Positions 7,391 through 54,153 of a stretch of 64,000 nt of DNA are shown in pieces. The notes under the pieces were generated by a model that searched no databases, was not told where the DNA came from, and saw only the letters and a list, made by a program, of their open reading frames with translations. The DNA lies in contig CBDFFH010000022.1 in the NCBI GenBank assembly GCA_965246715.1, forward strand, positions 96,001 to 160,000, in the 5' to 3' direction. Origin of the DNA: Chamaesiphon sp. Lineage in GTDB: Bacteria; Cyanobacteriota; Cyanobacteriia; Cyanobacteriales; Chamaesiphonaceae. The stretch's first letter is position 1. Every line of letters begins with the position of its first letter. The translations under genes were made by a program, and so were the position numbers.

Positions 7391-8629
7391 CTAGCTAACT
7401 AACTTTTTAAACCGTTTTTTCCCAACCTGCAATACCTTCCCGACTAATTGCCCAGCATCATCATAGGCAGTTTCGATATCACTAATTGCTACCCCATCCA
7501 ACTTCACCGCACCACCCTGAATCTGGCGTTTGGCATCATTGCTACCCGTACACAATCCGCTCGCCGCCAGAATTTGGAACATCTTCGTGGGAAAATTGAC
7601 AGAGCCGATCGAAAATTCGGGAATACTCTCGCCACCAGCATTTTTACCAGGTTTGGTAATCAACGCGATCGCATCGGCTTGGGCTTGTAATGCTTGTTCC
7701 CGTCCGTGGTACTGGGTGACTACCTCTAGCGCGAGGAGTTTCTGTGCCTCTCTGGGGTTCTCCGGCAGTCGATCGAGTGGTAAGTCAGTCAGCAGAGTAG
7801 AATAATCTTTGATGAGGCTATCGGGCGTTTTCTCGAGCTTAGAGTACATACTCAGCGGATCTTCGCCCATCCCGACATAATTATTCAGCGATTTGGACAT
7901 CTTTTGCACGCCATCGGTACCGAGCAAGATCGGCATCAACAGTCCAAATTGCGGCGTTAGTCCGAAATGCTTTTGGAGATCGCGTCCGACGACAAGATTG
8001 AATTTCTGATCGGTACCGCCGAGTTCGACATCGGCTTTGATTGCAACTGAATCATAGCCTTGCATGAGGGGGTAGAGAAATTCGTGGATGAAGATCGGGG
8101 TTTCTTTGGCATACCGGAGTGCAAAGCCTTCTTTGGCAAGCATCTGTCCCACTGTCATCGTCGAGAGCAATTCGAGCGTTTCGCCGAGATCGAGCGGGGA
8201 TAGCCATTCGGAATTGTAGCGAACTTCCAATCGTCCGGGTGTATCGAAATCTAGGATCGGTCGCACGCGATCGAGGTATGCTTGGGCATTAGCCGTCACC
8301 TGTTCCACGGTTAATTGCTTGCGGACTTCCGATTTGCCCGTCGGATCGCCGATCCGAGCGGTAAAGTCGCCGATGATTAATACCGCAGTATGTCCGGCAT
8401 CTTGGAAAGATCTGAGCTTCCGCAGGGGAATACTATGACCTAGATGGATATCTGCGCCAGTCGGATCGATGCCGAGCTTGACTCGCAACGGTCGATTGGT
8501 TGTCGCTAGCCGCTGGGCTAGATTTTCAGCCGGATCGGTAGAATTGGGCTGATGGGGAAAAATCTCAGTTATGCCCCGAAATAACCAATCGAACCGATCT
8601 GATGTAGGCACGGATACACTCGCAGTCAT
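7391..8629 (-). CDS. tyrS: tyrosine--tRNA ligase
   Basis: HLGH and KMSKS motifs, GGTDQ, C-terminal S4 domain. Confidence 0.97.
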
Positions 8630-9084
8630 AGGATGAAAATCAAACGGGATCTGAAAATAGTCGCAGGTTAAGCTTATTATAGTTACTACAGAAACTGAAA
8701 TATTTTTACACGCTTTTTAACTGTCGTTAACATTTTGAGCTACCAATCGACCTAAAGGTGCTGTCGATCGTCTACGATTGCATTGATGTCGATCGATCCC
8801 CAATTAATTAAATCGAGATTTACACTGTGGCAATCGCGACTTATCATCTTTAGAATCCCCGTTATCGACTAGCTTGCCAATCTTACACTTTGCCCTAGTT
8901 CGAGCGATGCGATCGAGAGAGACTACGCCAACGAGATGTAAATTCAGTATAGTTCCTAAATTATTGAGAGCAAAAGATCCCAACCGATCGATGGCAAGTC
9001 CACTAACGATTTAACTGCGATGAACGGCTCGGTTTACAACCAGCACTCATCATTAATCATCCATCATTCTGCGGAGCCTTACTA

Positions 9085-50270: not shown

Positions 50271-50451
50271 GCCCAAGTTGCTACCTATAAGCAAAGCGGT
50301 TAGAAACCGCTCCTCGGAATGCAAAGTCCGGTTGTTGCCGCTCGCGGCAAAAGCCTGCCTACGCGGACTAACTATCTAGTCCGCGTAGGCGGACTTTGCA
50401 GCATTAGCCGCGACTTCAGTCGCAGGCATTATATAAGGTAGCAACTTAGGT
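50271..50451. mobile_element. MITE family C
   Basis: CCCAAGTTGCTACC / GGTAGCAACTTAGGT; similar to 58376-58554 in inverted orientation. Confidence 0.8.
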
Positions 50452-50492: not shown

Positions 50493-51341
50493 TCACACCA
50501 TTTTCTTGAGGAACGTTTTCAGATTACTGAGAAATGTAGTAGAAACAGGGCGCTGTTTAGAGTCGAGATCGATGGATGGCAAGATTAGTGCCGAGTCGCT
50601 CGGTTGGAGTGGCTGAGGCGGAATTTCACGGATCGTCCCAAAAACACTCAATCGAAAGCTGATTTGACGAACGATCTCGATCGATAGCGCCATTTTTAAT
50701 GCCAATTTAACTAATGGTGTTTTGCCATCAGCTAACTTCCATAACTCTAACTCATGGCGATTGAGTTCAAAATTAGGTTGCTGCGAATTGCATCGTTGAA
50801 TTGCATAATGTGGGTCGGGCAACTTGGCACTCAATCCGCTCCAATCCTTCAGTAATCTAAGGGACAATAATCCTAAATCCTGGGCGGAGGCGCTGATGCC
50901 AGTCAGCTCGGAATTAATTGGCGAGCGACCGGGATCGAACTGAAATCGGCTATTCTTGAGTTCAAATAGTCGATGGATTGGTGAGATTGTTTGAGAATTA
51001 AACAAAAACTTAAGCTCTGCGGCATCTAGCAATCCTTGCGACTTCAAATAAATACCTAGTGGTTGCGGTAAACGATCGAGGATGGTTGTCACTGGATAAA
51101 TTTCAGCTTGGGACATTAATTTCCGCCGCTCGATCTTCGTCAATAGTTCGCTACCGTCTATTCCAGAAGTAACAGCCACAATCCGACCGCTTTCAAACCA
51201 TAAATAATCGTGGTTATTACTGGGAACTGTAGCTAAATTTCGATCGGGAGAAAGTGTGAGTAATCCAGTCCGATTGCCTTCATAAATAAAGCTAAAAATT
51301 TCTGCCAAGGAATATTCTGATAAATACCCAGAAAATTTCAT
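50493..51341 (-). CDS. stand-alone DUF4388/PATAN-domain protein
   Basis: GYLSEYSLAEIF..RTGLL..WFESGRIVA; paralog of 52051-52923. Confidence 0.85.
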   Translation of the reverse strand: MKFSGYLSEYSLAEIFSFIYEGNRTGLLTLSPDRNLATVPSNNHDYLWFESGRIVAVTSGIDGSELLTKIERRKLMSQAEIYPVTTILDRLPQPLGIYLKSQGLLDAAELKFLFNSQTISPIHRLFELKNSRFQFDPGRSPINSELTGISASAQDLGLLSLRLLKDWSGLSAKLPDPHYAIQRCNSQQPNFELNRHELELWKLADGKTPLVKLALKMALSIEIVRQISFRLSVFGTIREIPPQPLQPSDSALILPSIDLDSKQRPVSTTFLSNLKTFLKKMV

Positions 51342-51374
51342 ACTGCTAACTGTAAGATTCTTAGATATTAATAA

Positions 51375-51935
51375 CTAACAAATAATTGCTACTTCTTCAA
51401 CATTAGTATTTGCCATATAATGCTCTACGAGCGCGACCAATGCATCGATGACAGATTCTTCTTCATCGGCATTTACCGACACGATCGGTGGACGCTGAGC
51501 GCTTTCTTGATAGCCTAATGCTAAGGCGATATCTTCATTTCCCCAAGCTCCTTCACAATCACCGTGAGTAATACCGATAATCATCGGAACGTGCGAGCGC
51601 TGATTCATGAAATTCATAATTCGACGTGCGTGATGAAATTCGCCCGGTCGATGTGCTGCAATTAGTAACACATAAGCATGAGCGCGCTCGATCAAAATTT
51701 CCCACATAAAATCGAACCGAATCTGACCGGGAGTGCCATAGATATGTAATGCCATATCTTCGCCAAATTGGAGCGTCCCAAAATCCATCGATACAGTAGT
51801 ATTTTGCTTCATACCTGCCACCTCATCAGTGGCTTTGCGATCGGTATCGACAACTTCAATCTCACTGGCAGAGCGAATAAATGTACTTTTTCCCGCCCCT
51901 ACCGTTCCCGTAACCACTAAACGCATAATTTCCAT
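51375..51935 (-). CDS. MglA/CvnD-type small GTPase
   Basis: GTVGAGKST, TTVSMDFG, YGTPGQ.RF.FMW, THGD. Confidence 0.9.
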   Translation of the reverse strand: MEIMRLVVTGTVGAGKSTFIRSASEIEVVDTDRKATDEVAGMKQNTTVSMDFGTLQFGEDMALHIYGTPGQIRFDFMWEILIERAHAYVLLIAAHRPGEFHHARRIMNFMNQRSHVPMIIGITHGDCEGAWGNEDIALALGYQESAQRPPIVSVNADEEESVIDALVALVEHYMANTNVEEVAIIC

Positions 51936-52050
51936 ATTTTATCGATCCTATTGTGCGGAAAATCAATGAAATTGTTGAGACAGAGATAGAGCTGGTGGTT
52001 ACAAACTTATCTTGCAAATTGGCAGAATAATTAATACTATGTATAGCAAT

Positions 52051-52923
52051 TTAGTTAGTTGCTGAAGTTGAAGACTTCTTGGTTCCTTTTTTAAGAAAAT
52101 TCTTTAGATTGCCCAAGAAAGAAGTAGATATGGGTGAATTTTTAAATCCAGGTTCTAAGACTGGTACTGCTATTTCCGCACTCACTGACTGCATTGGCTC
52201 GGTCGGTATTTCTCGAATCAATCTAAACGAACTCAAACAAAAGCTAATCTGTTGGACGGATTCGATCGGTAGATCCATTTGGAGTGCTAATTGTGATAAA
52301 GGTGTCTCGCCATCAGCTAATTTCCATAACTGTAATTCTTGGCGAACGAGTCTAAACTCTGGTTGTTGTGCAGAGTGCTTTTGGATGGCATAATCGGGAT
52401 TGGGTAACTTGGTAGTCAATCCGCTCCAATCTTTCAATACGCGCAATCCCAACATGCCCATTTCTTGAGCGGTGAGACTGATGCCAGTCAATTCAGAATT
52501 TATTGGTAATCTAGTTGAATCGAAATGAAACTGTCTATTCTTAATTGCAAACAGTTTTTGTACGGTCGCGATCGTTTGAGCATTAAATAATAATTTAAGC
52601 TGCTCGGCATCCAAAAAACCCCGAGATTTGAGATGAATCCCCAGTGGTTGTTTGATTTGCTGAATCTGCGTTTCCAATAGTTCGACAAATTTTGGCGTGA
52701 TAAACTTGCGTTGACCGATGGTCGTTAGCAGTCCTTTTCCGTCTAGTCTAGAGGTGACAGCTACAACCCGACCACCAACAAACCATACATAGCGTGGCTC
52801 ATTCGGCGCGGTAATTTCGTTTGGATCTGGGGATAGTTCCAATAAGCCACTGCGACTTCCTTCATGAACGAAATTAAAAATTTCTGCCAATGAATATTCT
52901 GACAAATATCCGGCAAGTGCCAT
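52051..52923 (-). CDS. stand-alone DUF4388/PATAN-domain protein
   Basis: GYLSEYSLAEIF..RSGLL..WFVGGRVVA. Confidence 0.85.
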   Translation of the reverse strand: MALAGYLSEYSLAEIFNFVHEGSRSGLLELSPDPNEITAPNEPRYVWFVGGRVVAVTSRLDGKGLLTTIGQRKFITPKFVELLETQIQQIKQPLGIHLKSRGFLDAEQLKLLFNAQTIATVQKLFAIKNRQFHFDSTRLPINSELTGISLTAQEMGMLGLRVLKDWSGLTTKLPNPDYAIQKHSAQQPEFRLVRQELQLWKLADGETPLSQLALQMDLPIESVQQISFCLSSFRLIREIPTEPMQSVSAEIAVPVLEPGFKNSPISTSFLGNLKNFLKKGTKKSSTSATN

Positions 52924-53257
52924 CTAGCCCTCCAAAATAATAAATAAGCTTAAATCTACTCTTTAGCTCGAACGATACTCGATCTGTAGCAATCGCCAAG
53001 AAGCTTAGGATGAGTAGAGACGCTCCAATAAAACGTCTCTACCGAATCGATTTGCGATTCATTGCTAGCAATATAAAATCTAGATCGGACGCGAACAAAT
53101 ATTAAAACTAAAGCGGCAAAGCTTGCCAGAAAAGTTCGATAAAAGTCAACATGGATAGTCGATCGACCCATTAAAAATCACAGATCTATCGACTATCGAT
53201 CGCTATCTAGCACATCATGCATCCATTTTAGAAAGTCCCAAGGATGGGTCAACTAAT

Positions 53258-53623
53258 TTAATTTAATGCAGCTTTGATTTCGTTAACGGTACGTTTGATG
53301 TCTAACATCAACAAACCTTGCTTCGCTGAATGACTAGCCAAGACTAGTAAGACGGCATCGTCGCCACAACCCATGAGGATACCGTAGCCATCATCACCTT
53401 CAACCATGACTTTCTCGACGTTACCGCGTGCTAATTCTTTACCGATTCTCTCGCCAAGGGAGAGCATCGCCGCAGACATCGCCGAAGTCCGTTCTTCATC
53501 CATAGTACCTGGGAGACTAGAGGCTAAAGGTAAGCCATCGGGTGATACCAATGCTGCACCTTGGACATCAGAAGTACCCGAAACAAAGCTCTGTAAAATT
53601 CCACCAATTGCACTGACACCCAT
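53258..53623 (-). CDS. roadblock/LC7 (MglB-type) protein
   Basis: AALVSPDGLPLAS..SAMSAAMLSLG. Confidence 0.92.
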   Translation of the reverse strand: MGVSAIGGILQSFVSGTSDVQGAALVSPDGLPLASSLPGTMDEERTSAMSAAMLSLGERIGKELARGNVEKVMVEGDDGYGILMGCGDDAVLLVLASHSAKQGLLMLDIKRTVNEIKAALN

Positions 53624-53682
53624 AATTTCCTCGCTGTGATTAATTTAGATAAGTTAGTAATGAAGTTGAAATCGATCGAGAT

Positions 53683-54153
53683 CTAGACAACGGGAGTAAA
53701 TTCAAATACGTCGTGAGTACCACCGCGTAGAACGGATTCAGTATGCATACCACGCAGTTTTTTGCCAGTGATTTCAGTTAATGCACCCCACACAGCACCC
53801 ATCGTAAAAGTACATTTGCGGTTGGAACCTGGAAGTTCGCCAGCAGAACAAACAGTCTCAGAACAGTAAACTTTGATGGTGTCGCCTTCTTGGACGATTT
53901 TATCCACTGCAGTGAGGCGAGTACCTGCACTACCGACGGCTTCGTTTAACTTAGTGGCGATGGTACTCAAGTCGGCAGTAGAACCAGATAAACCTAGCTC
54001 GATAGCGAGGTTTTTACCACGAGTGCGACCAGCCGCAATCAACGAGATCGCTGTTGCTTTTTCGCCGAGTGCTTCTTCCATACCAGTAATTACTGATTTG
54101 AAACAAACAATACTGCTGAATTCTCCGAGGCTAGGACGAGTAGAAAGTGACAT
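53683..54153 (-). CDS. V4R-like small-ligand-binding protein
   Basis: ETVCS..CTFTMGAVWGAL..HTESVLRGGTHDVFEF. Confidence 0.75.
   Translation of the reverse strand: MSLSTRPSLGEFSSIVCFKSVITGMEEALGEKATAISLIAAGRTRGKNLAIELGLSGSTADLSTIATKLNEAVGSAGTRLTAVDKIVQEGDTIKVYCSETVCSAGELPGSNRKCTFTMGAVWGALTEITGKKLRGMHTESVLRGGTHDVFEFTPVV

Follow-up and report, generated by a model that had tools for sequence, protein, structure and literature searches.

Signalling through small G proteins in bacteria is understood in two systems only, the polarity switch of Myxococcus and the conservons of Actinobacteria, and in both the entry of the signal is an open question. In Myxococcus xanthus, the small GTPase MglA, which belongs to MglA Group 1, is paired with the roadblock protein MglB. 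Conservons (AGPS; CvnA-D, Mfp) follow the order input, roadblock protein, winged helix-turn-helix (wHTH) protein, GTPase. MfpD functions as GTPase-activating protein (GAP); the DUF742 protein MfpC is a guanine nucleotide exchange factor that speeds up nucleotide exchange on MfpB (PMC11343762, PMC13343842; further literature: PMC3791482, PMC9090330 and PMC8534245). A roadblock-GTPase-PATAN core has been catalogued for cyanobacteria as MglA Group 5 by Wuichet and Sogaard-Andersen, with five cyanobacterial loci encoding MglB, MglA and a PATAN protein (rows tlr1990, Cyan7425_5249, Cyan7425_2399, CYB_1482 and CYA_2865; PMC4316618). Here, a related five-gene locus of Chamaesiphon sp. is described (assembly GCA_965246715.1, contig CBDFFH010000022.1, positions 96,001-160,000 of the forward strand; this stretch of 64,000 nt is referred to as the window). 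Its first gene encodes a soluble V4R-fold protein that likely feeds a chemical signal into the catalogued G-protein switch. In their order of reading, the genes are:

53683..54153, minus strand: stand-alone V4R/Bet3-fold protein of 156 aa (open reading frame (ORF), Atlas look-alikes, AlphaFold (AF2) model, fold match)
53258..53623, minus strand: Roadblock/LC7 (MglB-like) protein of 121 aa (PF03259, E 1e-18)
52051..52923, minus strand: DUF4388/PATAN domain (residues 4-167), winged helix (~165-243), linker and amphipathic helix (267-281), 290 aa (Pfam, model)
51375..51935, minus strand: MglA-family small GTPase of 186 aa (ATP_bind_1, E 3e-13, and Roc/Ras; motifs; tree)
50493..51341, minus strand: second DUF4388/PATAN protein with winged helix and amphipathic tail, 282 aa (Pfam; 57% identity to the first copy)

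An initial annotation had named these five co-oriented genes, and ORF calls, Pfam searches and fold matching agree with it. The genes are separated by gaps of 59, 334, 115 and 33 bp and are flanked by a rhodanese gene (convergent) and a DedA gene (divergent). V4R, roadblock and GTPase genes are each present in a single copy in the genome, which is 99.8% complete.

The conservation of the locus was analysed in two sets, the 80 best-ranked among 160 related loci (named loci) and the stretches from a phylum sample of 401 genomes (51 stretches around matches, 50 of them with a GTPase ORF). Loci and genomes are designated by L and G numbers, respectively. Among the named loci, 72 have a roadblock gene and 79 a DUF4388 gene, the missing ones being mostly explained by contig ends, and 39 have a V4R gene; the respective counts in the 50 phylum-sample stretches are 46, 43 and 21. 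All module genes are co-oriented in 80/80 and 50/50 stretches, so that the grouping goes beyond chance. The gene following V4R encodes the roadblock protein in 38/40 cases in the named loci and in 13/22 in the phylum sample, where a globin gene follows in 5/22, and V4R-roadblock pairs are also found away from the GTPase (L204, L206, L207). A DUF4388 gene adjoins the GTPase gene in 83/86 and 43/48 cases. In conservons, the slot between roadblock protein and GTPase is held by DUF742, and DUF4388 occupies the same position here. Thus, the expectation that the neighbourhood is conserved holds for the core, which is grouped in both sets, but not for the exact order V4R-roadblock-DUF4388-GTPase-DUF4388, which is found in 4/80 (L008, L013, L015, L026) and 1/50 stretches only. 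The paired DUF4388 genes, which had been seen as part of the design, occur in 6/80 and 5/50 stretches; they were rejected as a defining feature, and their rarity indicates that the second DUF4388 gene is a local duplicate. What does stand from the initial annotation is a conserved, kinase-free module of MglA/MglB type, in which a soluble V4R-fold protein takes the input position.

This position is filled by V4R or, in relatives, by a second accessory gene, or by both. By ORF clustering, the dominant neighbour of the module is a gene for a stand-alone protoglobin of 185 aa (PF11563) in 42/80 and 32/50 stretches, which presumably binds haem, given its family membership; hemerythrin is encoded in 14/80 and 5/50. 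Among loci with 1.2 kb of DNA on both sides, V4R, globin or both are present in 52/56 and 40/47. The V4R family was found in 28 of the 401 genomes, 25 of them with the GTPase, and the globin family in 34, 31 of them with the GTPase, which leaves three genomes each among the 360 GTPase-less ones. An accessory gene is present in 38 of the 41 GTPase genomes (18 with both, seven with V4R only, 13 with globin only). V4R and protoglobin are interchangeable or additive accessory genes, with globin being the commoner one (31 vs 25 of 41). The proposed role of V4R as the input agrees with its slot before the roadblock gene, but V4R would share this role with a more frequent partner. When accessory labels were mapped onto the GTPase tree, 21 changes were needed over 58 rows, which indicates that the accessory set was reshuffled repeatedly, although many inner branches are weak. 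The exceptions to co-occurrence include broken copies, namely a transposase beside a truncated DUF4388 gene in G373 and fragments in G097 and G151. A decayed module with globin, V4R and truncated DUF4388 genes beside a transposase was observed at L199:4019-7027; neither a GTPase nor a roadblock match was found in the genome it belongs to.

The globin family matches Tlr1989 (PDB 8H17) at E 9e-82 and, at E 9e-9, the sensor globin of a globin-coupled kinase. The locus tag Tlr1989 directly precedes tlr1990, with which the MglB>MglA>PATAN row of Thermosynechococcus starts (PMC4316618). A haem globin is encoded at the head of this homologous operon, and in HGbRL of Methylacidiphilum infernorum a globin is fused to a roadblock domain, for which the authors propose a relay from globin to roadblock (PMC4476040). 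HGbRL differs in its globin type, in being a fusion and in its methyltransferase operon, and the window locus has no globin. Protoglobin genes also lie in the module at two of three opened plasmid loci of Deinococcota, while none is annotated in the third; Thermus plasmids carry the set DUF4388-GTPase-roadblock-protoglobin. These globins are only 23% identical to the cyanobacterial one. On a plasmid of Thermus brockianus (L227:3348-8483), DUF4388, GTPase, a pair of protoglobins, a hypothetical protein resembling globins and the roadblock protein are followed by EAL and HD-GYP genes, which hint at a link to cyclic di-GMP. Since protoglobin, at times joined by hemerythrin, fills or shares the input slot in relatives, the typical signal of the family is likely O2, nitric oxide or redox state. 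The form in the window is without globin, has V4R as its only accessory gene and carries a duplicate of the partner gene.

The 156-aa protein has no V4R family match in Pfam or NCBIfam; the cut-off of PF02830 was not reached, and among three relatives scanned one gave a sub-threshold match (E 0.03). The initial annotation had named the protein V4R-like, which is confirmed by the fold of its model. Two of its Atlas look-alikes (0.97 and 0.95) are clusters in which 33% and 19% of the members, respectively, carry V4R. The AF2 model (pLDDT 87) was compared with solved structures by the VIA-align wide search, the single source of all fold matches given here, which barely covered the N-terminal PATAN domain of the DUF4388 proteins. 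The best match is PoxR (Z 15.6, rmsd 3.3, 143 residues aligned), followed by DmpR (Z 14.8), MJ1460 (Z 13.4) and TRAPP subunits of the Bet3/TRAPPC3 fold (Z 11.6-12.5). As modelled, the protein has the V4R/Bet3 fold with a helical layer and a four-stranded sheet as in the solved structures. It was also considered as an H-NOX haem sensor, which was rejected because these matches (Z <=8.3) lie well under those to V4R/Bet3 proteins. A profile search of solved sequences with the V4R alignment gave no match. The homologue search, which covered proteins of 83-321 aa, yielded 2448 matches among 8000 scored.

Two GxxxG doublets have been described for the V4R/Bet3 fold by Podar et al. (PMC2253512), and both, G42xxxG46 and G119xxxG123, are invariant in 37/37 V4R relatives. 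The same applies to C17, E99 and C102, while C97 is found in 30/37 and C114 in 16/37. Thus, the protein shares the fold and both glycine doublets with PoxR, DmpR, MJ1460 and TRAPPC3 (PMC2253512, PMC10933270), but is distinguished by being stand-alone, by the missing Pfam match, by a changed cysteine pattern and by its place beside roadblock and GTPase genes. The closest folds are those of ligand sensors. The modelled protein is likely a soluble sensor for a small-molecule ligand. An alternative role would be that of a structural or exchange-factor subunit that forms a TRAPP-like platform with the roadblock dimer and loads the GTPase. The matches to the Bet3/TRAPPC3 fold, the tight V4R-roadblock adjacency and the very high conservation of surface-type residues would suit such a subunit, as would Ser140 and Asp148 at two of the cysteine positions of what we take to be the V4R zinc motif. 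However, V4R is absent from 16/41 GTPase genomes, it alternates with a globin, and PoxR and DmpR are ligand sensors, so that the platform is considered very unlikely.

For the roadblock protein, the closest solved chains are 7f8m, 9jue and CvnB5 (3leq). An Asp-Gly pair, D29-G30, is invariant in 40/40 roadblock relatives and was equated with the published conserved Asp-Gly pair of MglB on an assumed match of positions (PMC4316618). By analogy, the protein is likely a GTPase-activating dimer. The GTPase carries the motifs GTVGAGKS (G1), TT within NTTVSMDFG (G2), GTPGQ within YGTPGQ (G3) and THGD without a lysine (G4). This corresponds to the pattern of MglA Groups 2-5, in which Thr replaces the G2 arginine and G3 reads GTPGQ, and TT and GTPGQ are found together in 129/131 GTPase relatives. 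In contrast to Group 1 MglA, neither the intrinsic arginine finger at G2 nor TVPGQ at G3 was found in the window GTPase or in these 129 of 131 relatives. With Group 5, the module has the roadblock-GTPase-PATAN set as well as TT and GTPGQ in common. G4 is given as [NT]KxD for Groups 1, 4 and 5 (PMC4316618), whereas the window GTPase has THGD and the Thermus/Deinococcus rows read TRQD; the GTPase is therefore filed as a Group 5 variant and not as a plain member. Further differences from the Group 5 listing are the second DUF4388 gene and V4R in the window and, in relatives, the globin and hemerythrin partners, which lie outside the notation of the table. A search of solved chains with the GTPase profile gave no match at E 1e-5.

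In the GTPase tree, 51 cyanobacterial rows lie on one side of a branch (99/94). The neighbours of this clade are plasmid GTPases from Thermus and D. proteolyticus, and conservon GTPases lie outside; the tree was built without MglA Groups 1, 3 and 4, and a long-branch warning was issued. The D. proteolyticus plasmid protein is inferred to be the table row Deipr_2135 from its organism, gene order and length of 184 aa. The tree places the window GTPase with Group 5 members and apart from Group 2. The cyanobacterial GTPases are 40-46% identical to those from Thermus/Deinococcus and about 30-35% to conservon GTPases. The window GTPase is 63-90% identical to those of the 80 loci, and its closest named relatives are Chamaesiphon records (80-90%). 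A cysteine follows directly after G4 (residues 123-127, 51555-51569), and THxDC is found in 107/131 relatives; this cysteine presumably resembles the redox-sensitive cysteine in NKCD of Ras.

Both partner proteins contain DUF4388 (residues 4-167; E 1e-20 and 1e-19). The initial annotation had described them as paralogues without a receiver domain, which is correct, as neither contains one and they are 57% identical to each other. In the model (pLDDT 90), a winged helix (~165-243) comes after the PATAN domain and is joined by a loose linker to a helix (267-281); the winged helix and the conserved amphipathic C-terminal helix, which the initial annotation had not noted, are present in both proteins. 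The tail motif was found in 44/46 DUF4388 relatives and, among the segments measured, is conserved best (column identity 0.70 vs 0.23 for the linker). It is amphipathic and basic, with a net charge of +2 and a hydrophobic moment whose median lies at the 90th percentile of all 12-mers in the respective protein, and we take it to resemble the membrane anchor of MinD. A profile search of solved sequences with the DUF4388 alignment gave no match. The winged helix has its best fold matches in a GATOR1 chain (Z 9.7; 72 residues at an rmsd of 1.9) and an SEA chain (Z 9.1), followed by a peptidase (Z 8.6) and transcription factors (Z <=6.2). This modelled likeness to GATOR1/SEA is regarded as a lead, its Z being only just over the common range.

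With PatA-type PATAN-receiver regulators (PixE, PixG, PatA), the module proteins have the N-terminal DUF4388 domain in common, but they lack the receiver, carry the winged helix and amphipathic tail and are distant in sequence. The four other DUF4388 proteins of the genome, of about 400 aa and with receiver-like ends, are of this PatA type. Winged helix, linker and terminal helix are arranged in the module proteins as in conservon DUF742 proteins. A profile built from nine DUF742 sequences gave 117 matches (E<10) in 3442 ORFs, among them 95 of the 134 DUF4388 ORFs, with a best score of 20.4 bits vs 10.6 for anything in the genome of the window. DUF742, whose member from mycobacteria acts in nucleotide exchange, may thus be fused into the DUF4388 proteins instead of being replaced by two PATAN outputs, as the initial annotation had it, and beyond being outputs the proteins may have a regulatory function. 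Compared with conservons, the module shares the order input-roadblock-wHTH protein-GTPase, the motifs of Groups 2-5, a G4 motif without lysine and optional accessory genes (P450 and GAF in conservons). Unlike conservons, it has no CvnA kinase, a soluble V4R (in relatives a globin) is in the input slot, and the wHTH protein, only weakly like DUF742, carries a PATAN domain.

Taken together, a kinase-free GTPase module with a roadblock GAP, a V4R ligand sensor and membrane-held DUF4388 proteins as GTPase partners is predicted, a reading that is given about an even chance. The roadblock dimer would act as GAP on the GTPase as MglB and MfpD do. V4R would bind a small molecule and adjust the roadblock protein; for this step, which comes from gene context, the V4R-roadblock adjacency, the GTPase-free pairs and the published globin-roadblock fusion are the basis. 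The DUF4388 proteins would contact the GTPase, as the frequent adjacency of the two genes suggests, by their winged-helix half, the amphipathic tail would hold them at the membrane, and the PATAN domain would form their outward face. Two steps are the weakest. By analogy, the winged-helix half could be an exchange factor like CvnC/MfpC, a tentative assignment that falls short of even. It is somewhat more doubtful that a membrane machine, for instance the type IV pilus motor, receives the GTP state from the PATAN domain. In a broader reading, the operon would join folds of eukaryotic GTPase control, namely a Bet3/TRAPPC3-fold protein on a roadblock dimer as in TRAPP and Ragulator, a membrane-tethered winged helix like those of GATOR1/SEA as nucleotide regulator, and a GTPase of Ras type. 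With V4R, haem globin and hemerythrin as interchangeable soluble sensors, it would give oxygenic phototrophs a kinase-free route by which the state of oxygen or small molecules reaches the switch. The probability of this combination is rated as low.

Several observations weigh against the predicted module. The two sets of loci come from one collection and overlap, and kin genomes in them are not independent. Neither V4R nor globin is present in 3/41 GTPase genomes. V4R stands alone at 4/14 detached places (L201, L202, L205, L208), and globin occurs without any module gene at 11/12 second-globin places, so that each of them can persist apart from the module. A globin elsewhere in the genome of the window was considered and rejected, since no protoglobin was found there despite 99.8% completeness; gas sensing can therefore not be claimed for the window locus. 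G4 reads THxD in 120/131 GTPase relatives and [NT]KxD in 2/131, and with a G4 motif lacking lysine the guanine specificity of the GTPase is an assumption. For the winged-helix half, the likeness to DUF742 is weak in hhalign (E 9e-5, probability 59%, 55 columns). Pfam assigned DUF742 to three and HTH_47 to 32 of 46 DUF4388 members, the two DUF4388 proteins of the window were absent among the DUF742-profile matches listed for their own genome, and the reverse search from DUF4388 had no DUF742 among the matches listed. The profile of the module DUF4388 proteins scores <=7.5 bits on the four PatA-type regulators of the genome.

The last point also bears on the reading, suggested in the initial annotation, of a polarity switch like that of Myxococcus, in which GTPase and roadblock protein set the cell axis and the PATAN domain steers the type IV pilus motor. 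PilB1 and PilC are binding partners of PatA-type PATAN domains, which reverse phototaxis, and MglA/MglB have been noted near PATAN genes (10.1101/2021.06.11.447907). PilB/PilT-type ATPases are present in the genome, the module is followed by a PATAN-receiver gene in L143 and by a gene of similar size with a receiver domain in L204, and the tail of the DUF4388 proteins is of a membrane type. However, the GTPase lacks the Group 1 motifs, about 90% of the sampled genomes do without the module (present in 41/401), none of the recurrent neighbours scanned is a pilus gene, and the module PATAN domain is distant from the PatA type. The link to polarity or pili is a guess, and an unlikely one. A transcriptional output, in which the winged helix binds DNA under control of the GTPase state as proposed for some conservons, would explain the winged-helix fold and the HTH-type Pfam matches. 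Conservons alter gene expression (PMC13343842), and a HisKA_3 kinase and a NarL-type regulator are encoded directly upstream in 12/50 stretches. It is decidedly unlikely, as the best folds are winged helices other than transcription factors, the amphipathic tail points to the membrane, and DNA binding is held unlikely for PatA-type proteins (10.1101/2021.06.11.447907).

A conflict system with MglA, an MglB-like protein and a wHTH-ABC-ATPase is cited in a preprint, as is V4R in immune contexts (10.64898/2026.10.19.760177). The patchy distribution of the module and the NB-ARC/TPR or restriction genes beside a few copies would be in line with an anti-phage or anti-plasmid system built from an MglA-type GTPase, a roadblock protein and winged-helix parts. 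This was rejected as extremely improbable because there is no PADLOC match of note and no effector domain, the GTPase is 63-90% identical across the 80 loci, and the neighbours in the window encode rhodanese and DedA proteins.

The literature searched, which was mostly without subscription papers, contained no functional work on the cyanobacterial module or on V4R or globin together with it. To this extent the initial statement that no characterisation is known is upheld, although the roadblock-GTPase-PATAN core was already known as Group 5 (PMC4316618). What appears to be new is the V4R/globin accessory slot. It is not described in the papers searched, and V4R is not mentioned in those parts of the text and supplement of PMC4316618 that were searched; neighbouring V4R or globin genes may already have been noted in papers on PATAN proteins and 8H17. 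As candidates for the input, the module and its relatives offer small soluble proteins, and the structure of one of them, Tlr1989 from a culturable model cyanobacterium, has been solved, so that the coupling of sensor and GAP is testable with four purified proteins. If a direct V4R-roadblock-GTPase complex were confirmed, it would be a functional bacterial counterpart for the long-proposed V4R ancestry of TRAPP. In the Asgard archaeon MK-D1, GTPase genes are reported to be generally not in operons with roadblock or TRAPPC3 genes (PMC10933270).

Some further arrangements were observed around the module. The upstream pair of HisKA_3 kinase and NarL-type regulator genes is a trait of one family and was scanned in one representative (L121:1613-3492), where an ion-channel gene, present in 9/50 stretches, follows the module (8280-9080). 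In L157 and L160, a tandem of globin-roadblock-GTPase and V4R-(roadblock)-GTPase genes without DUF4388 precedes an NB-ARC/TPR gene. A 433-residue frame in L167 (G141), possibly a fusion, has matches to the roadblock family as well as to the GTPase family. In genomes from other classes of the phylum (G001, G004 etc.), there are 3-6 roadblock matches per genome, many of them within long frames, and no match to the module GTPase at 1e-10.

In the module region, scans for promoters and terminators gave 6 vs 10.4 and 4 vs 3.9 matches, which is chance level. This includes the terminator-like and promoter-like minus-strand matches in the 334-bp gap between the roadblock and first DUF4388 genes (52924-53257), and the five genes may form two transcription units. 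A clear island was not seen in the GC profile, and no RNA entry is listed for the region. By eye, an inverted repeat with perfectly matching 14-bp arms around a 6-base loop was identified between the rhodanese gene and the last DUF4388 gene (50357-50390), which is either a terminator or a dispersed repeat. A gene for a helical carotenoid protein (Carot_N) directly precedes the roadblock gene in one relative (L122:2352-2882) and a lone V4R gene in another (L201:3194-3745).

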